Source of the DNA: a virus
Lineage: Duplodnaviria; Heunggongvirae; Uroviricota; Caudoviricetes
DNA length: 18,529 nt
IMG/VR virus record: IMGVR_UViG_3300042869_000717
Coordinates: 78,208 to 96,736 of that record
Reading direction: 5' to 3' (one strand)
The notes under the pieces were generated by a model that was given only the letters and a program-made list of their open reading frames with translations, had not been told where the DNA came from and ran no database searches. Below are positions 2,131-18,529 of this stretch, piece after piece. The translations under genes and the position numbers were made by a program. The first letter of the stretch is position 1. Each line of letters opens with the position of its first letter.

Positions 2131-2739
2131 TTACACGTTTAATATTCTAATTGATTTGTTTGTACATTCATTCGTTAATCCATATCCGATGTCCAACGCA
2201 TCCGGATGATTGATATTGTTTGCCGTTCTAACAAAATTACCTCGTTGGTGGGGTAAGAAATCGTTATCATCATCTAAGATAACATATCTTTCCACTTCAG
2301 GATGTTCATCCAACCAATATTGTACTTCGTGACCTCTTTCAACTTCATCTATCCATTCAAATAAACCTTCATTATGTAAGTAAGTACAATCCGGTGTGAT
2401 ATCAATCACCTCACCAGGTAAGTTCCTCTTTTCCCACATATCTTTCATCCTCTGTAATCCACCATATCTCCAAGTTGATGATATTACAATCTTGGCACCC
2501 GTTTCTTCAATAACTCGTTTAAGGTTATTAACAAATTGGGGTTGAAATTGACTACCAAACTCATCGTGGTCGTGGGAGTAAACATTAAGAACTCCATCGA
2601 TATCAAGGAATATTATTTTAATCTTTTCCATCTTATTTATTATTTTAGTTGAATTAAACCTCTCATTATCGGTTAATCCCTGACATTTCCAACACCATTC
2701 ATCAGATGTGGTATCAATATGTTGATAACATTTAACCAT
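2131..2739 (-). CDS. HAD-superfamily phosphatase-like protein (resembles the Swiss-Army-knife RNA-repair HAD family)
   Basis: Motif I KIIFLDIDGVLN, motif II IVISSTWR, motif IV YVILDDDNDF. Start is either 2739 (overlaps the upstream stop) or 2631 (MEKIKIIF). Confidence 0.8.
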   Translation of the reverse strand: MVKCYQHIDTTSDEWCWKCQGLTDNERFNSTKIINKMEKIKIIFLDIDGVLNVYSHDHDEFGSQFQPQFVNNLKRVIEETGAKIVISSTWRYGGLQRMKDMWEKRNLPGEVIDITPDCTYLHNEGLFEWIDEVERGHEVQYWLDEHPEVERYVILDDDNDFLPHQRGNFVRTANNINHPDALDIGYGLTNECTNKSIRILNV

Positions 2740-3145
2740 TTTTTTTCTTTGGTATTTCGTAATTATTATCCAACCATTCAAATAATTCGTCAGGTAATTG
2801 ACACGGGTAAAAATCTATAAAATCAAATAAGATTTCTTCCCAATCCATTATAATAACATCAACATTAATGTTATATATTTCCTCCATTTCTTCCGGCATA
2901 ATGCCGTATAATGTGTTGATTCTTTCACTATTACCACCTTTGAAGTATTCCCGAACCATATCTCGTCTTCTTCCCTCAGTTTGGTTTAACCACCAAGTTC
3001 TAATTTCTTTATTGGTATAGGTCTCTTCATACCCCATATTTCTCATTTCAATTTCAGTTGATTCCAACTCTTCCGGAGTAATGTTTGATAATACATCTTC
3101 TAATATTTTTGAATGATATACTCTTGGTTTTTTGTTCTCACCCAT
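2732..3145 (-). CDS. Hypothetical protein (137 aa)
   Basis: ORF track; abuts both neighbours. Confidence 0.7.
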   Translation of the reverse strand: MGENKKPRVYHSKILEDVLSNITPEELESTEIEMRNMGYEETYTNKEIRTWWLNQTEGRRRDMVREYFKGGNSERINTLYGIMPEEMEEIYNINVDVIIMDWEEILFDFIDFYPCQLPDELFEWLDNNYEIPKKKNG

Positions 3146-3937: not shown

Positions 3938-3983
3938 TTAATAAAAAAAAAATCCATCATATGATGGATTTTTTTTTTATTAA
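3938..3983. terminator. 46-bp perfect palindrome; likely intrinsic terminator of the tmRNA
   Basis: TTAATAAAAAAAAAATCCATCAT|ATGATGGATTTTTTTTTTATTAA; begins 2 nt beyond the tmRNA discriminator base and has A10/T10 tracts in its arms. Confidence 0.75.
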
Positions 3984-3985
3984 AG

Positions 3986-4395
3986 TGGAGATGCCGATTT
4001 CGAAATCGGGTGTTGTCCATCCTAAGTGTTTAGGTCTACACGTTTATTCAATTAATTCTCAACTGACAAATAAGAAGGTTTTAATTTTTCCATCATTACC
4101 TACAACTGTGGGAGGTTCACTTTAATAGGTAGACCCTCAAACGAGACCTTGACACTCTTCGGGTGGTATCACACCTTAAGATATTTCTGTTGCAAGGTAC
4201 ATATATCCGTCGACCCCAATGTGTGTTTGCTTACGCTACGTTCACAAGCTCATCTTGACGTACAAGACCTACTAGAGCCATTTTGTTTAAAATGTTGCCA
4301 TTTATAATTTTGTCATCCATAGATTTAAGTGATAGGAAACTTCTCACTACGTGCCCTAAATAAGTAGATATGTCAGTCAATTCCATTTCATCCCC
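3986..4395 (-). ncRNA. ssrA: tmRNA (transfer-messenger RNA)
   Basis: 5' GGGGATGAAATGGAATTGAC pairs with 3' CATCTCC-A, giving a 7-bp acceptor stem with G3.U70 and discriminator A (tRNA-Ala identity). A TTCGAA T-loop-like hairpin is present. TTTAGG/CCTAAA and CACGT/ACGTG pair as in helix 2. There is an internal tag ORF after ATAAAT|GGC. Confidence 0.93.
4231..4299 (-). other. tmRNA tag reading frame, (A)GNILNKMALVGLVRQDELVNVA*
   Basis: Resume codon GGC at 4299 inferred from the TATAAAT|GGCAAC context; 22 sense codons to TAA at 4231-4233. Confidence 0.75.
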
Positions 4396-4409: not shown

Positions 4410-4440
4410 CAAAGATAAACATAAATATTGAAATTCCAAA
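4410..4440 (-). promoter_or_regulatory. Bacteroidota-type promoter for the tmRNA
   Basis: TTTG (4440-4437), N19, TATCTTTG (4417-4410): an exact match to TTTG-N19-21-TAnnTTTG, 14 nt upstream of the mature 5' end. Confidence 0.75.
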
Positions 4441-4471: not shown

Positions 4472-5611
4472 ATGAAAGTAATAAAATTAACTGAATCAGA
4501 CCTTAATCATATTATCAGAAGGGTCATACAGACAGAGCAAGACACTGAAAAAGAGGAAGATAAGAACTTAGTTGTCGGTCTTAGAAATTTTTCTAAAGGT
4601 AGAATTAGTACTGACGAGTTATATAATATCGATAATACTATAGACTATATTCAAACTAAGGAACCTTTAGGTCAATCTATTATAACCATTAAATTTGAAG
4701 ATGATAAAGAATTTTTAGAAGAAATTGACATGGACGAATCAGATGTTTGGTTCATGCAAGCTATTAATTCATACAATGGATATGATTTTCAAGATTCATA
4801 TCAAATAGAACAAGATTTTAAAGAAGGGTACAATGTGTATTATGAATTGAACGATGAGAATAAAGAAACTCTTAAGGACATCGCATCCACAATATTACCT
4901 GAAAAAGAATTTAATCTCGAGAGTGAAGAATACAGACAAGAATTATCCGAAATGTTACTTGATTTATTTCCTAATGAAATTGATTATATCCTCGGGGATT
5001 TTCAATCTGAAAAAGAGCACGAAATGAATACTGTCGCAAAAAAGGCAATCGAAGATGAATTTAATAAACCGTTAGAGGAAAATGGTATTAACCTTAATTA
5101 CAATATGGATGAAGTGGAAATCACTCTTGCCGATTTATATTTGGGTGCGTTACAACTAAATTTATTTAATTCTAATGCCAAAGAGATTGTTACAAAAATA
5201 ATAAATAAGTCTTTTGGAGGGTCAACTCCTGGTGGTTGGTATGAGAAAATTTACGAGTTTCAAGATGAACAATATTTCGATTCAGTATCATTTAATAATG
5301 AGGTTACAAGACAATTTGAAAAGATTATTGAAAAATTAGATGAAAAAAGTGACGAAGAATATACAATTCAAGACTTTGTTGAATTTAGAAACCGAGTTGT
5401 ATCTAAATATAAATTAAAAACTTGGTATGAAACCCCTAAAGACGACAATATTATTTTTCAAATTGAATCGTTTAATCCGGGTAATATGTCAGTTAAATTA
5501 ATTGTCAAAACTAAAGATACCGGATTATTTAAAAAACTTGAATTGGAAGAAGAAGAATTTAACAATTTTTTATATCAAAATACCTTATTTAATTTGGATG
5601 ACATGTATTAA
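4472..5611 (+). CDS. Acidic hypothetical protein (379 aa), possibly virion-associated
   Basis: Start reassigned from 4370 (inside the tmRNA) to ATG 4472 (MKVIKLTESDLNHIIRRVI). No catalytic motif recognised. Confidence 0.8.
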   Translation: MKVIKLTESDLNHIIRRVIQTEQDTEKEEDKNLVVGLRNFSKGRISTDELYNIDNTIDYIQTKEPLGQSIITIKFEDDKEFLEEIDMDESDVWFMQAINSYNGYDFQDSYQIEQDFKEGYNVYYELNDENKETLKDIASTILPEKEFNLESEEYRQELSEMLLDLFPNEIDYILGDFQSEKEHEMNTVAKKAIEDEFNKPLEENGINLNYNMDEVEITLADLYLGALQLNLFNSNAKEIVTKIINKSFGGSTPGGWYEKIYEFQDEQYFDSVSFNNEVTRQFEKIIEKLDEKSDEEYTIQDFVEFRNRVVSKYKLKTWYETPKDDNIIFQIESFNPGNMSVKLIVKTKDTGLFKKLELEEEEFNNFLYQNTLFNLDDMY

Positions 5612-5624
5612 TTTATTACCTTTG
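5593..5624 (+). promoter_or_regulatory. Bacteroidota-type promoter for the peptidase gene
   Basis: TTTG (5593-5596), N20, TACCTTTG (5617-5624); ATG at 5629. Confidence 0.7.
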
Positions 5625-5628
5625 TCCC

Positions 5629-6471
5629 ATGACAAACGATATATTATTACTAAAAGAAGTTCTTAGTGTTCCAACCGTAACTTATAAAGAAGACCTAATG
5701 GTTGAATTTTTACAGAATTGGTTGACCGAAAACAATATAGAACATTATGTTGATGAACACAAAAATGTTTATGCAACCAAACAAGAACTTGAAACACTTC
5801 CTGAGGACTTTTACTTCCCTTGTGTTATTGCACATACTGACACAGTCCACAGATTAGACAATATAATAGTTCATGAAGAACAATTACCTAATGCTCAAGG
5901 TGAGATTAAAGATTCGTTGAAAGCTTACAACTTACATGGATTACCAACCGGAATCGGTGGTGATGATAAATGTGGAGTATTTGCTTGTTTAAAATTACTA
6001 AAAGAATTACCAAATTTAAAAGCCACTTTCTTTGTATCTGAAGAAACCGGATGTCACGGTTCCAAAAAGGCTGACCCTGAATTCTTCACTAATGTTGGTT
6101 ATGGAATTCAATTTGACGCTCCGGAGAACTGGATGATTACCGAAAAATGTTTCAGTCAAGATTTATTTGATAGAGAGTCAGAATTCTTTGAAGTTTGTGA
6201 CCAAGTATTAACCGAAGGGATGCATAACGAAGATATGCAATACATGGTTCATCCATATACTGATGTTTATGCGTTGAGAAGTAAATTTAGTTTTTCTTGT
6301 ATCAACTTTTCAATTGGGTATTACGATTACCACACACCAAACGAATATGTGGTGATTGAGGATGTTTTCAAAGGGATTGAAATGGGAAGACAAATGATTG
6401 AAAAACTTGGGAATAAGTTACACTACAAAGAAGTAGTTGAGATTCCAAGATATAATCACAGATTCTTCTAA
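5629..6471 (+). CDS. Co-catalytic zinc peptidase, clan MH (M20/M28/M42-like)
   Basis: Metal-ligand motifs IAHTDTVH, GIGGDDKCG, VSEETG, QFD and the C-terminal YHTPNE. Confidence 0.88.
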   Translation: MTNDILLLKEVLSVPTVTYKEDLMVEFLQNWLTENNIEHYVDEHKNVYATKQELETLPEDFYFPCVIAHTDTVHRLDNIIVHEEQLPNAQGEIKDSLKAYNLHGLPTGIGGDDKCGVFACLKLLKELPNLKATFFVSEETGCHGSKKADPEFFTNVGYGIQFDAPENWMITEKCFSQDLFDRESEFFEVCDQVLTEGMHNEDMQYMVHPYTDVYALRSKFSFSCINFSIGYYDYHTPNEYVVIEDVFKGIEMGRQMIEKLGNKLHYKEVVEIPRYNHRFF

Positions 6472-6902: not shown

Positions 6903-8918
6903 TTATTTTCCTTTTTTCTGAATTGTGATGTCCTCACCCTTCATTTTGATTTGGTAGGATTTACCCTCAACCATTTTACCGGTTAATACTTCTTCGGATA
7001 ACAAATCCTCAATTTTGTCTTGGATTGCTCTCTTCAATGGTCTTGCACCATATACTTCATCGTATCCAATTTTAGATAGGTATTTAACAACCTCATCATC
7101 GTAGGTTACGGTGTATTTCATCTCACCAAGACGAGTCATTAATTTCTTTAACTCAATATCGGTGATTTTATCGATATCTTCAGGAGTTAATGAATTAAAG
7201 ACAATAGTGTCATCAATACGGTTAATGAACTCAGGAGAAAAGAAATTCTTCATCTCTTTCATCAAGATTTCTTTCTTAGCTTCTTCGTCGGCGTAAGAGT
7301 TATTAGAGAATCCAATACCAGTACCGAAGTCTTGTAATTTCTTAACACCTAAGTTAGATGTAAGGATGATTAAGGTATTCTTGAAGTTAATCTTTCTACC
7401 TAAACTATCGGTTACGTGTCCATCATCTAATATTTGAAGTAATACCGTGAAAACATCTTTGTGAGCTTTTTCAACCTCATCAAATAAGATTACAGAATAT
7501 GGTTTGTTTTTAACTTTCTCAGTTAATAAACCTCCTTCTTCGTAACCAACATATCCCGGAGGTGCTCCAACCAATTTAGAGATGGTGTGTTTCTCTTGGT
7601 ATTCTGACATATCCACACGGATAAGTGAATCTTCTGTTCCAAACATCTCTTTAGCTAATTGTTTGGCCAAGTGAGTTTTACCAACACCGGTTGAACCTAA
7701 GAAAATAAATGAACCAATAGGTCTGTTAGGGTCTTTAATACCTAAACGGTTTCTCTTGATTGATTTTGCAATCTTAACAACAGCAGCATCCTGACCAATC
7801 ACTTTACCCATGATTGATTTATCTAAATTCATCAACGCTTTGGAATCATCAGCATCCATTTTACTCACAGGGATTTTAGTCATACTTGACACAACTTGAT
7901 ATACGGTTTCAAGAACAATAGTTTGTTTCTCCAAATCCATTTGTTTTGCAAACTTATCTTTTTCCGCCTCAAGTTTAATCAATAACTTTTTCTCCTTATC
8001 TCTAAGTTGTGCTGCTTGTTCGTAGTTTTGTTTTTTAACCACTTCCATTTTTTCAATCTTAATCTCAGCGGCTTTCTTTTTTAATTCCTCAATAACATCA
8101 GGAACTTTAATCTCGGTTTGCATACGAGCACCAACCTCATCTAAGATGTCAAATGCTTTATCCGGGAACTCACGGTCGGTGATGTAACGGTCAGCCAACT
8201 TAACACAAGTTTCCACAACTTCGTCACTATACAACACTTTGTGGTATGATTCGTATTTATCACGAACATTCTTAAGGATTTCGATTGTTTCTTCAACTGT
8301 GGATGGCTCCACAATTACTTTTTGGAATCTTCTTTCCAAGGCTCCGTCTTTCTCAATGTTCTTACGGAACTCATCAAGAGTTGTCGCACCAATACATTGA
8401 ACCTCTCCACGGGCAAGTGCCGGTTTGAAGATGTTTGAACCATCCATTGAACCTGAAGAATTACCGGAACCAACCAATGTGTGAATCTCATCGATAAACA
8501 CAATGATATTTGGATTAGCACTAAGTTCCTCGATAATCACTTTCATTCTTTCCTCAAATTGTCCACGATACTTTGTACCAGCAACAACTGAAGTTAAATC
8601 AAGGTTCACGATTCTTTTGTCCACTAAGTTTCTTGGACATTCTCCACTCACAATTTTCATAGCCAAACCTTCAACCAATGCGGTTTTACCACATCCGGGT
8701 TCACCTATGATAATAGGGTTATTCTTTTTTCTACGAGAAAGGATTTGTGCGATTCTCAAAATCTCGGCATCTCTACCAATAACCGGGTCTAATTTACCCG
8801 CCTCAGCTAGTTTATTTAAATCTCTACTGAAGTTGTCTAATACAGGTGTGTTTGTATCCATAGCTTGTTTTTGTGCTTTGTTCCCTGATTTGTCGTTGTC
8901 GTCCATTAAGTCGTTCAT
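6903..8918 (-). CDS. clpC: ClpC-type AAA+ unfoldase lacking the N-terminal Clp-repeat domain
   Basis: Two AAA+ modules (GEPGCGKT/FIDEIH and GSTGVGKT/LFDEVEKAH), pore loops KYRG and GYVG, a short UVR-type middle domain (KQNYEQAAQLRD) and the ClpP-docking loop GIGF (7308-7319). ATG 8918 preferred over the track's TTG 8951. Confidence 0.9.
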   Translation of the reverse strand: MNDLMDDNDKSGNKAQKQAMDTNTPVLDNFSRDLNKLAEAGKLDPVIGRDAEILRIAQILSRRKKNNPIIIGEPGCGKTALVEGLAMKIVSGECPRNLVDKRIVNLDLTSVVAGTKYRGQFEERMKVIIEELSANPNIIVFIDEIHTLVGSGNSSGSMDGSNIFKPALARGEVQCIGATTLDEFRKNIEKDGALERRFQKVIVEPSTVEETIEILKNVRDKYESYHKVLYSDEVVETCVKLADRYITDREFPDKAFDILDEVGARMQTEIKVPDVIEELKKKAAEIKIEKMEVVKKQNYEQAAQLRDKEKKLLIKLEAEKDKFAKQMDLEKQTIVLETVYQVVSSMTKIPVSKMDADDSKALMNLDKSIMGKVIGQDAAVVKIAKSIKRNRLGIKDPNRPIGSFIFLGSTGVGKTHLAKQLAKEMFGTEDSLIRVDMSEYQEKHTISKLVGAPPGYVGYEEGGLLTEKVKNKPYSVILFDEVEKAHKDVFTVLLQILDDGHVTDSLGRKINFKNTLIILTSNLGVKKLQDFGTGIGFSNNSYADEEAKKEILMKEMKNFFSPEFINRIDDTIVFNSLTPEDIDKITDIELKKLMTRLGEMKYTVTYDDEVVKYLSKIGYDEVYGARPLKRAIQDKIEDLLSEEVLTGKMVEGKSYQIKMKGEDITIQKKGK

Positions 8919-8975
8919 AGTTTCTAATTTTATTTTACAAAGGTGTATCAAATTTTATTCTTATCCTAATTTTTA

Positions 8976-9050: not shown

Positions 9051-9058
9051 CAAAGGTA
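9051..9058 (-). promoter_or_regulatory. Bacteroidota-type -7 element oriented toward clpC
   Basis: TACCTTTG on the minus strand, the same octamer as in the peptidase promoter; no exact -33. Confidence 0.5.
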
Positions 9059-9088: not shown

Positions 9089-9469
9089 ATGTTTGGAAAC
9101 AGAAAAAATTTTAATGACATTTTGAGAGAATTTGATAATATGTTCTCTCAGTTTGATTCTTCTCAGTTAGGGGAATGGAAATCAGAAACAAGAGTATCTG
9201 AAGATGGTACGATAAAAGTGACTTCATTCTATAGAAGTTCAGAACCAAAAACACCTAAAGGTAGTAATGGTTTAAAACGACAACTTGAGTTGGCAATCGA
9301 AAATGAAGACTTTGAGAAAGCGGTTGAGATTAGAGACCAAATCAGAAAAATGGAAACTAATCAAGAATCTATCTCTAAACTTGAAGAAGAATTAAAACAA
9401 TCAATTAAAGACCATAACTTTGAACGGTCAATTGAAATTCGTGATGAATTAAAAAAATTAAAACTTTAA
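9089..9469 (+). CDS. Tandem UVR (UvrB/UvrC motif) protein, McsA-like C-terminus; candidate Clp adaptor
   Basis: Two UVR repeats, LKRQLELAIENEDFEKAVEIRDQI and LEEELKQSIKDHNFERSIEIRDEL. No Cys, so no McsA zinc fingers. Confidence 0.8.
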   Translation: MFGNRKNFNDILREFDNMFSQFDSSQLGEWKSETRVSEDGTIKVTSFYRSSEPKTPKGSNGLKRQLELAIENEDFEKAVEIRDQIRKMETNQESISKLEEELKQSIKDHNFERSIEIRDELKKLKL

Positions 9470-10072: not shown

Positions 10073-10804
10073 ATGAGTAAATTCCAACAAATACTTAATA
10101 GTTTTTCTATTAAAGAAACCCTTAACCCAAAAGTATGGGAAAATCCGGATAACCCGAAGAAGGCGACTATGATTCCTAAGGTTAAAGAAGCCCTTGAGCG
10201 TATCGCCGAAGAGTTTGTAGATTATTTGGGTGATAATGTATTTGTTGAAGATGTCGTTCTAACCGGTTCATTATCAAATTTTAATTGGTCTGAATTTTCA
10301 GATTTTGATTTACATGTTATTGTGGATATGGATGAATACGGAGACGAGGATGAATTATACAAAGAACTTTTCAATTTAAAAAAACAACTTTTTAATATAA
10401 ATCATAACATTAAAATCTTTGGTTATGATGTGGAATTATATGCTCAAGACGCCGAAGAACCCCATATTAGTTCAGGAGTATACTCTATTATGAATAATGA
10501 ATGGATTAATGTTCCAAAAAAAACAAATTTAGAAATAAATAAAAAAGCTCTTGAAGATAAAATCAAAAATTGGACTGAGAAAATTGATACTTCCGTTGAG
10601 AATGGGGACATTAAAATTCTTGAATCAATTAAAGATAAATTAAAAAAATATCGTCAATCAGGATTGGATGATGGCGGAGAACTATCTTACGAAAATTTAG
10701 TGTTTAAATACCTAAGAAGGTCAGGACATGTTAAAAAATTATTCGATTCGATTAATAAAGGGACAGATAAAAAACTATCTATTGAAAGAAAAATTGAGGA
10801 TTAG
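10073..10804 (+). CDS. DNA polymerase beta-superfamily nucleotidyltransferase
   Basis: hGS-x9-DhDh signature (VLTGSLSNFNWSEFSDFDLHVIV) and a third acidic residue in YDVELY. Substrate unknown. Confidence 0.85.
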   Translation: MSKFQQILNSFSIKETLNPKVWENPDNPKKATMIPKVKEALERIAEEFVDYLGDNVFVEDVVLTGSLSNFNWSEFSDFDLHVIVDMDEYGDEDELYKELFNLKKQLFNINHNIKIFGYDVELYAQDAEEPHISSGVYSIMNNEWINVPKKTNLEINKKALEDKIKNWTEKIDTSVENGDIKILESIKDKLKKYRQSGLDDGGELSYENLVFKYLRRSGHVKKLFDSINKGTDKKLSIERKIED

Positions 10805-16929: not shown

Positions 16930-18529
16930 ATGAGCGAACAACAAAATAATATGACGGTATGGCAGAGATTATCCCAAACATTTGGGCCTAATTCTCAATT
17001 AAACCAAGATTATCCAACTTTTAAGTTTGATAAAAAGGAATTACTACGTACCAAAAGTAAAGAAGAATACGAGAAAGAAAAGTTACAGGCGCAACAAACC
17101 TTTTATTTAACCAATCAATGGGCAAAAGTTGAGAATAATTTATATTCTCAGGCAATATATTATGAACCGTCAAGATTATCGGCACAATACGATTATGAAA
17201 GTATGGAATATTGCATCGCCGGAGACACAAAAATAGCAACTCCTGATGGTTTTATAACCATAAAAGAACTTGCTGACAAAGGCAGAGATTACGAATTTAT
17301 CACTTATTCGTATGACCACAATTTGAAAAAAGTCGTACCCTCAAAGGCTCGAAATGCACATTACACTCGAGATGAAATGACATATAAAGTTATTTTTGAC
17401 GATGGTTCATTTATTATCACAACATGGGAACACCAATTAATGAAAAGAGATGGGTCATTTGAGAGAGTTATGAACCTCAAAGACGGGGATTCTATGATGC
17501 CGTTTTATCGTAAATCATTTTATAATAACCAAAACTATAATTGGGTTTACACTTGCAATAAAGATGAAGGACACCATGGGTGGGTATCAGAACATAGTTT
17601 AATTGCAAAATGGTATAATGAAGTAGAAATAAAAGACAACGAAGAAGTACACCATATTGATTTTAATGGGAAAAATAATCTTCCTGAAAATTTATTAATT
17701 ATGGATATTTCAGAACATAGAGCATATCATGCAAGATTGAATAATGAAAAATTATGGTCTAATCCTGAGTATAGATTAAAAATGTCTGAAGTTGCCAAAC
17801 GTAAAGGTAAAATGACTTGGGGTGGAAAACGTAAAGGTAATAAAAATCCAGCATATTTTTCGATACCTTTTGACAATATCATTGAAACGGCGAGAATTGA
17901 GAAATCTTTGAAAAAAACATCTTTAAAGTTGAATGTTTCATACAGGAAATTACAAAGAGATATTACAAATTCCGGTTACAAAGATTGGTCAACATTCCTC
18001 GACGCTTATGGTATTGAAAAATCAAAATACTCTACGTCAAAAAGTGTGGGGTCTTCAATTAATTTGAATCATAAAATAGTGTCAATAGAACCTAATGGAG
18101 TTATTCCTGTTTATGATTTAACAGTTCCCGGATATAAAAACTTTGCAACAGATACTATATTTTCCCATAACACTCCTGAAATATCAGCAGCGTTAGACAT
18201 TTATGCGGAAGAATCAACCACAACAAATGAAGATGGGTTTATATTACAAATTTATTCAGAGTCAAACAGAATAAAAGGGGTATTAGCCGACTTGTTTAAT
18301 AACTCACTTGACATTAACACTAACCTACCAATGTGGACAAGAAACACTTGCAAGTATGGTGATAACTTTATTTTTTTAAAATTAGACCCTGAAAAAGGAA
18401 TTGTAGGTGTTCAACAATTACCAACAATCGAGATTGAAAGACATGAAGTAGGGGTAAGTGCAAAAATATCGACTGACATAACTAAAGAATTAGATAAAGA
18501 CAAAAAATCTCTTCATTTTACTTGGAAGA
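16930..18529 (+). CDS. Portal protein (T4 gp20-like), intein-interrupted, 3' truncated by window edge; missing from ORF track
   Basis: Manual translation from ATG 16930 (MSEQQNNMTVWQRLSQTFG...) is open to the end. The spliced junction YDYESMEY|TPEISAALDIYAEEST, followed by WTRNTCKYGDNF, fits T4-like portal N-termini. Directly follows terL. Confidence 0.85.
   Translation, partial: MSEQQNNMTVWQRLSQTFGPNSQLNQDYPTFKFDKKELLRTKSKEEYEKEKLQAQQTFYLTNQWAKVENNLYSQAIYYEPSRLSAQYDYESMEYCIAGDTKIATPDGFITIKELADKGRDYEFITYSYDHNLKKVVPSKARNAHYTRDEMTYKVIFDDGSFIITTWEHQLMKRDGSFERVMNLKDGDSMMPFYRKSFYNNQNYNWVYTCNKDEGHHGWVSEHSLIAKWYNEVEIKDNEEVHHIDFNGKNNLPENLLIMDISEHRAYHARLNNEKLWSNPEYRLKMSEVAKRKGKMTWGGKRKGNKNPAYFSIPFDNIIETARIEKSLKKTSLKLNVSYRKLQRDITNSGYKDWSTFLDAYGIEKSKYSTSKSVGSSINLNHKIVSIEPNGVIPVYDLTVPGYKNFATDTIFSHNTPEISAALDIYAEESTTTNEDGFILQIYSESNRIKGVLADLFNNSLDINTNLPMWTRNTCKYGDNFIFLKLDPEKGIVGVQQLPTIEIERHEVGVSAKISTDITKELDKDKKSLHFTWK
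17212..18171 (+). mobile_element. Intein (320 aa) with an HNH homing endonuclease
   Basis: Block A CIAGDTKIATPDG, block B IITTWEHQLM, block F/G IVSIEPNGVIPVYDLTVPGYKNFATDTIFSHN, +1 Thr. HNH core EEVHHIDFNGKNNLPENLLIMDISEHRAYH (17641-17730). Confidence 0.93.

Follow-up and report, generated by a model that had tools for sequence, protein, structure and literature searches.

Long tmRNA tags of a conserved family in freshwater phages that carry their own ClpC and ClpP

In Escherichia coli, the ssrA tag has the sequence ANDENYALAA and belongs to a system that includes SspB and ClpXP. The native tag of Bacteroides, GETNYALAA, has 9 residues (10.1101/2025.03.18.644028), while the tag of Mycoplasma and Mesoplasma has 27 residues and is read by Lon (PMC8403727, PMC9382460), the protease with which the long Mollicutes tag has co-evolved (PMC8403727). 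tmRNA genes are also known in phages, namely in the mycobacteriophage Bxz1 group, in Bacillus phage G, in huge phages and, in a two-piece form, in pelagiphages and Melnitz (marine myophages) (PMC4131195, PMC9004378, PMC7162821). Phage tmRNAs and, in Mollicutes, long non-canonical tags are therefore known, and what appears to be new, as judged from sequence comparison, is the conserved phage tag family described here. A search of the published literature found no paper that describes this family or connects the tag of a phage with a Clp system encoded by phages.

The tmRNA gene lies in a stretch of 18.5 kb (the window, to which all coordinates refer unless another record is named) that forms the last part of a 96.7-kb IMG/VR virus record with a CheckV completeness of 32%. 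The source is a lake-water phage, and the genomes of its freshwater clade measure about 320 kb. The host of the clade is probably a member of the Bacteroidota, since the window contains more TAnnTTTG boxes, the Bacteroidota-type -7 element, than expected (44 versus 28 +/- 5, and none of the shuffles reached 44). Relatives were collected in two ways: the neighbouring Clp ATPase led to 80 loci, and a search with the tag as a degenerate DNA pattern added more than 115 contigs. The resulting tag family comprises 183 related phage loci or contigs, in which the tag DNA occurs in 75 distinct versions and the peptide in 54. Whole genomes were compared for five complete relatives, which measure 317-326 kb. 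Neither the tmRNA nor the whole window had a match by blastn or megablast among 50,697 phage records, and the family tag had none there by tblastn.

Anatomy of the tmRNA gene and its RNA in the environment

The gene is a one-piece tmRNA (ssrA) at 3983-4395 on the minus strand, which matches Rfam RF00023 over the full model (1-374) with 50.6 bits, above the gathering threshold of 47 (E 1.5e-17); its relatives score 62-76 bits. ARAGORN called no tmRNA on the whole window, and among 39 family sequences it detected four and missed 35, calling the same long tag in three of the four. As ARAGORN is the standard detector and misses around 90% of this abundant freshwater tag family, surveys of phage tmRNAs undercount.

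The tRNA-like domain is built on an acceptor stem whose 5' strand (4389-4395, minus strand), including G3 of the G3:U70 pair, pairs with the 3' strand at 3987-3993 (minus strand). The seven base pairs are fully formed in all 37 sequences for which both ends are available, with eight covarying stem variants, and the G3:U70 pair and the discriminator A (position 3986 in the window) are unchanged in all 37. The discriminator is followed by CUU instead of CCA in the window copy, which encodes no CCA, whereas most relatives encode ACCA. Candidates for a CCA-adding or tailing enzyme matter for this reason. A search of the 96.7-kb record for the CCA-adding enzyme domain PF01743 (PolyA_pol) gave only a sub-threshold match, at G000:C1:3575-3637 of that record, and a weak NTP_transf_2 match (E 5.6e-4) lies at 10073-10804 (plus strand) of the window; judging by these domain matches either protein could be such an enzyme. 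The T-arm (3994-4009, minus strand) has a 5-bp stem, which covaries with that of relative L009, and a 6-nt loop, UUCGAA, one base shorter than the canonical 7-nt loop with UUCGA found in most relatives. The short loop on the covarying stem is a trait of the subgroup of the window. In a second subgroup, a G-rich loop of the G-G-C-G-G type replaces UUCGA and the tag is intact (L043/L038, which correspond to the complete genome G001, L036, L034 and L031 are among the T-loop variants); RF00023 had no match in G001 at E <= 0.001. In a tmRNA that presumably works, both variants of the tRNA-like domain are unusual.

Upstream of the tag, pseudoknot 1 occupies 4312-4348 (minus strand), with P3 formed by 4348-4344 and 4332-4328 and P4 by 4340-4335 and 4318-4312. 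Compensatory changes are seen in both helices among 39 sequences, with G-C and C-G in a ratio of 13:19 in P3 and T-A and A-T in a ratio of 9:26 in inner P4. Directly behind the 3' end of the gene is a hairpin with a T run that resembles an intrinsic terminator (3939-3982, minus strand; one found against 0.2 expected), and a TAnnTTTG box at 4410-4417 (minus strand), which precedes the mature 5' end by 14 nt, is conserved ahead of the tmRNA in the family alignment. Boxes of the same type precede the peptidase gene (5617-5624, plus strand) and clpC (9051-9058, minus strand), and the host polymerase may express these two genes and the tmRNA at the same time. In the window, the tag frame is also open in the upstream direction to an ATG in the acceptor/P2 region, which gives a 51-codon open reading frame (4231-4386, minus strand); as an annotatable protein this frame is an artefact, and relatives break it.

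RNA of this kind is present in the environment. Indeed, contigs from freshwater metatranscriptomes of separate studies, 389-419 nt in length, match positions 4032-4363 at 90-95% identity, and one has a depth of 252, a value that, like the rest of these data, belongs to an assembled contig, from which RNA ends, CCA addition, DNA carry-over and expression level are not readable. The contigs derive from close relatives of the window phage and not from the window phage itself. Inside the tag frame they carry two synonymous and two conservative changes, and all indels are outside it. No metatranscriptome contig covers 3942-4025 or 4383-4500, and contigs bounded near the length of the gene are what an abundant and stable RNA would give. 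Taking stem pairing, pseudoknot covariation and metatranscriptome RNA together, the tmRNA presumably works, with alanylation and trans-translation as predicted activities.

A long tag peptide under selection

The original prediction had read a tag of 22 codons at 4231-4299, about twice the usual length, and this reading is confirmed. The frame comprises 22 sense codons (4234-4299, minus strand), from the resume codon GGC at 4299-4297 to a TAA stop codon read from the sequence at 4231-4233. The Infernal check that had been proposed, an alignment to RF00023, puts the consensus resume codon on the same GGC at 4299-4297, which gives the peptide and coordinates first proposed, and the relatives support this frame. 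The pentanucleotide that sets the frame (4300-4304, minus strand) has U at -5 (4304) and A at -4 (4303); the A is invariant in 39 family sequences and the U is common. They correspond to A86 and U85 of E. coli, where A86 is the ruler by which the frame is set (PMC2481249). As the outcome that would overturn the prediction, a resume codon located more downstream, leaving an ordinary short tag, had been named, and the conservation of the frame in relatives speaks against it: the proposed comparison with related phage tmRNAs gives 21-22 residues in the same frame across 183 contigs. A +1 reading, which starts at GCA and meets a stop after three codons, was rejected because it is not conserved among the relatives.

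Purifying selection acts on the tag at the level of the peptide. The tag frame is open for 21-22 codons in 39 distinct family sequences, whereas the other two frames contain stops in 38 of the 39. The summed entropy is 12.4, 7.4 and 16.3 for codon positions 1, 2 and 3, respectively, the third position being the most variable and the second the least, and pN/pS over the 75 distinct tag DNAs is 0.44 in frame versus 0.91 and 1.12 in the shifted frames. Codons of the six-fold families are swapped synonymously within the tag (CTT/TTA for Leu, CGT/AGA for Arg), and indels with a length not divisible by three are seen immediately ahead of GGC and never inside the tag frame.

All 54 distinct tag peptides have 21 or 22 residues. 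Positions 1-15 follow the pattern G-N-[TVI]-[LF]-[AND]-K-[ML]-[AS]-x-[LIV]-G-[LF]-[TIV]-[RKA]-[EQ], where Lys6 and Gly11 are invariant in 54 of 54 peptides, and an acidic or small stretch follows position 15. The core (M-A-x-L-G-L-V) is hydrophobic and has charges on both sides. At the other extremity, the 21-residue tags end in Val-any-Ala, with Val in 45 and Ala in 43 of the 47 distinct peptides, and the 22-residue tags in Val-any-Val-Ala. Of the 54 peptides, 50 have Ala as their last residue and the others Ile or Ser. The position before it varies freely (V, A, G, T, K, E or L); among the 47 distinct peptides of 21 residues, 12 have Ala there and thereby end in -A-A. The rule for the end of the tag in the family is thus aliphatic-x-Ala or x-V-A, with -AA, -VA, -TA, -GA and other ends. 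The peptide therefore has a layout in two parts, a conserved upstream segment (1-15) and a separate C-terminal end in which the residue before the terminal Ala is free. The tag of the window ends in -V-A with Asn at the third position from the end, and has neither the two alanines nor the aliphatic residue of the L-A-A-COOH degron. That the tag ends in VNVA and has no terminal AA, as had been remarked at the outset, accordingly stands for the window copy and fails as a trait of the family, in which several relatives end in Ala-Ala.

Among the collections searched, the tag was found only in phages. The degenerate tag pattern matched at least 118 viral contigs, and no tmRNA in 185,579 genomes of bacterial and archaeal species. 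A single bacterial match, in a metagenome-assembled genome of Gracilibacteria, is located inside an open reading frame of 1814 residues with no Rfam tmRNA, and was discarded as a chance match. A six-frame translation of the 96.7-kb record contains the core motif at no other place, so that no natural protein of the record carries the same address.

Protease genes beside the tmRNA

The genes near the tmRNA follow a constant order (clpC, a variable small gene, peptidase, p379, tmRNA), with three genes on the opposite strand lying between the tmRNA and clpC. Next to the tmRNA and divergent from it is the gene of p379 (4472-5611, plus strand), a conserved protein without a known family, which is found in 85 of the 92 tag loci whose flank is long enough. 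The protein had no family in Pfam, PHROG or NCBIfam and no feature match in Atlas. AF2 predicts with confidence (pLDDT 89.4) a largely helical structure that has a beta sheet at its C-terminus; Foldseek returned nothing at E <= 0.001 against the PDB, and VIA-align gave a best Z of 5.2 to generic helical bundles, which is no convincing fold match. Across tag loci the identity of p379 falls to 26%, and the gene block is therefore kept over considerable divergence. The following gene (5629-6471, plus strand) encodes an M20-like, PepT-like metallopeptidase (phrog_4191, 3.7e-31; a weak match to PF01546 and a sub-threshold NCBIfam match to PepT-like proteins), which is present in all 76 tag loci with enough flank.

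On the minus strand, positions 6903-8951 encode a double-ring AAA+ unfoldase of the ClpC type with an IGF loop (Pfam AAA, AAA_lid_9, AAA_2 and ClpB_D2-small). Its best PDB match is 6em8, Staphylococcus aureus ClpC (E 5e-222), and since the alignment begins only at ClpC residue 144, the phage protein is without the N domain. Its two Walker sets and two pore loops are retained, together with the M-domain and a loop reading G-I-G-F, a type that docks on ClpP. The clpC gene lies within 7 kb of the tag in 36 of 37 loci with enough flank; conversely, the tag is present in 68 of 80 ClpC loci, and the other 12 end too early downstream to tell. Facing clpC, a small protein with twin UVR motifs is encoded at 9089-9469 on the plus strand (two stretches of PF02151; a sub-threshold NCBIfam match to the C-terminal region of McsA).

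ClpP is encoded in the same record, around 27 kb away. Each of the five complete relatives has one ClpP and one Clp ATPase; no second AAA_2 protein was found in them, and hence no ClpX, and searches of the same five genomes found neither Lon nor SspB (PF04386). SmpB was not found in the 96.7-kb record, which is 32% complete. Among the five complete relatives one encodes SmpB, adjoining the tmRNA, as do around 20 of the collected loci, and the lineage of the window presumably uses the SmpB of its host; an SmpB gene in the phage is no defining trait of one-piece tmRNAs. The SmpB of the sister lineage is a full protein (NF003843, 154 bits) located 0.5-1.5 kb from the tmRNA, for instance at 8494-8931 (minus strand) of L209, which corresponds to G003:C1:262496-262912.

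Three other features were observed in the 96.7-kb record. A HAD_SAK_2 domain, from the 'Swiss Army Knife' RNA-repair proteins (PF18143, 6e-29), is encoded at 2131-2781 (minus strand), 1.2 kb from the tmRNA. After the large terminase, an open reading frame of more than 533 residues (16930-18528, plus strand) has an HNH endonuclease domain at residues 190-280, according to several PHROGs, and runs off the end of the record. Outside the window, a cluster of 23 tRNA genes in the same phage includes a tRNA to which ARAGORN assigns a four-base anticodon, gtaa, but no identity (G000:C1:71388-71464), and which could be quadruplet-decoding or otherwise non-canonical.

Candidate readers of the tag and comparison with known systems

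These observations can be brought together in a proposed route. Host RNA polymerase would transcribe the tmRNA from its TAnnTTTG promoter up to its own terminator, and the transcript would be trimmed, provided with CCA and charged with alanine by virtue of G3:U70. Together with SmpB, which would be that of the host in the lineage of the window and phage-encoded in the sister lineage, the tmRNA would enter stalled ribosomes, where translation would resume at GGC 4299-4297 and append the tail of 22 residues. The tail would then act as a degradation signal in two parts, private to the phage family: its last three or four residues (aliphatic, any, Ala-COOH) would be ssrA-like and engage the pore of a Clp unfoldase, and its first 15 would form an address that raises affinity or specificity, like the SspB-binding half of the E. 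coli tag. The two-part signal is proposed because selection on the upstream 15 residues exceeds what a pore signal alone explains; its nearest precedents are that half of the E. coli tag and the long tag of Mollicutes. The reader would be the phage ClpC that lacks the N domain, acting with ClpP, and the adjacent M20-like peptidase would finish the fragments.

The steps of this route differ in strength. That the tail is a degron at all is quite likely. The further step, in which phage ClpC-ClpP is its main reader, is more tentative and somewhat less likely than not; ClpC is ranked as the most likely reader because it is the only unfoldase that the phage itself brings. The complete chain with the phage-protease step included is proposed with somewhat less than even confidence. 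Several features count against it. Related large phages broadly keep the gene order, and the linkage between tmRNA and clpC is for this reason weak as an argument for joint action; moreover, the two are separated by the three opposite-strand genes, and the ClpP gene is some 27 kb distant. The ClpC of Firmicutes normally depends on adaptors docking on its N domain, a domain that the phage protein lacks. Finally, the window copy itself has Asn at position -2, a 6-nt T-loop and no encoded CCA.

It had been suggested earlier that the tag might redirect rescued proteins to another protease or adaptor, and this is a reasonable hypothesis, since a ClpC-type unfoldase and ClpP are encoded by the clade itself, and in conserved linkage. 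In its strongest form, the route would be a private system for tagging and destruction, orthogonal to that of the host, in which the address is read directly by the ClpC lacking the N domain or by an unrecognised phage adaptor such as p379, and truncated proteins are passed to ClpC-ClpP and the M20-like peptidase to yield amino acids for the phage. This version is unlikely, though worth stating. If phage ClpC-ClpP does read the tag, this would be the first virus to install its own pair of degron and protease on host ribosome rescue.

The other suggestion made from the window alone, that a missing terminal AA lets the tag avoid ClpXP, is not supported, as members of the family end in AA, VA, TA or GA and -LVA ends are strong degrons for ClpX. 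In E. coli, such ends are recognised by ClpX, and a pentapeptide screen enriched FKLVA more than any other degron (PMC10862746). Host ClpXP therefore remains a serious rival reader, and host ClpAP, FtsH or Lon are equally conceivable readers of the ssrA-like end. The tag would then be an ordinary degron of the ssrA type for host proteases, ClpXP in the first place, with an N-terminal part that only adjusts the rate or serves to bind a host factor, and phage ClpC would have other clients. The recurrence of the aliphatic-any-Ala-COOH end across the 54 tags, several of them with -AA, agrees with such a reading, as do the strength of -LVA and FKLVA ends as ClpX degrons in E. coli (PMC10862746), the G-N start of the tag, which resembles the G-E-T/N start of Bacteroidota tags, and the dependence of four of the five complete relatives on host SmpB. 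However, ClpX needs the last three residues only, which leaves the invariant Lys6 and Gly11 and the pN/pS of 0.44 over the first 16 codons unexplained, and as no bacterial tmRNA with the motif exists among the 185,579 species genomes, a host factor adapted to it is unexpected. Reading by host proteases is considered improbable on the whole, although it deserves real weight.

A role other than degradation is less probable still. The tail could serve for capture by chaperones, for sequestration in aggregates or at the membrane through an amphipathic hydrophobic core, or for inactivation, with ribosome recycling as the activity under selection. The hydrophobic core with its flanking charges would suit these functions, and in E. 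coli phage plaque assays require ribosome release and not the tag itself (PMC2481249). Conversely, a conserved small or aliphatic C-terminal residue and a constant length are typical of degrons, and the clade always carries ClpP and ClpC, which makes it doubtful that the tail is kept for such a purpose. As for the view that the conservation stems from RNA structure or from factors that bind the tmRNA, or that translation in fact resumes downstream and yields a short tag, the downstream start picked by ARAGORN in one relative (L063) and the frequent location of the 3' part of the frame within helix 5 are outweighed by the variable third codon positions, the synonymous swaps of six-fold Leu and Arg codons, a pN/pS close to 1 only off frame, the confinement of non-triplet indels to the region upstream of GGC and the invariant A at -4, so that this view is largely refuted and very improbable.

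The preferred reading, a two-part tail addressed to phage ClpC-ClpP, can finally be set against the systems already described. With the known phage tmRNAs (PMC4131195, PMC9004378, PMC7162821) the family shares an ssrA gene in large, tRNA-rich genomes, some of them with SmpB; the present tag family is not described in those studies, in which the detector used was ARAGORN. The resemblance to the SsrA of Bacteroidota concerns the one-piece form, G3:U70, pseudoknot 1, A at -4 and the TAnnTTTG promoter, as well as a tag that starts with Gly and ends in a small aliphatic residue. In contrast, the phage tag has 21-22 residues instead of 9 and is without Y-A-L-A-A, its K-M-A-x-L-G-L core is absent from the 185,579 bacterial species genomes, and the window copy differs by its 6-nt T-loop and the absence of an encoded CCA. 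An upstream address combined with a C-terminal pore signal is what the phage system, as proposed, would have in common with ssrA, SspB and ClpXP of E. coli. It differs in that the five complete relatives have no SspB and no ClpX, and in that the candidate reader is a ClpC without the N domain; any adaptor would have to belong to a family other than SspB, since PF04386 is absent from these genomes. With respect to the SsrA of Mollicutes, where Lon reads the tag and ClpXP is missing, the phage tag is without the aromatic N-Y-A-F-A end, the phage genomes encode ClpC and ClpP and not Lon, and the reader of the phage tag is a predicted one. The two have in common a long, non-canonical tag rich in hydrophobic residues, and in both the change of the tag goes together with a different repertoire of proteases. 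If the proposed reading is true, the phage tag and its ClpC would represent a compact and naturally orthogonal pair of degron and unfoldase, useful in the same way as the Lon tag of Mesoplasma.
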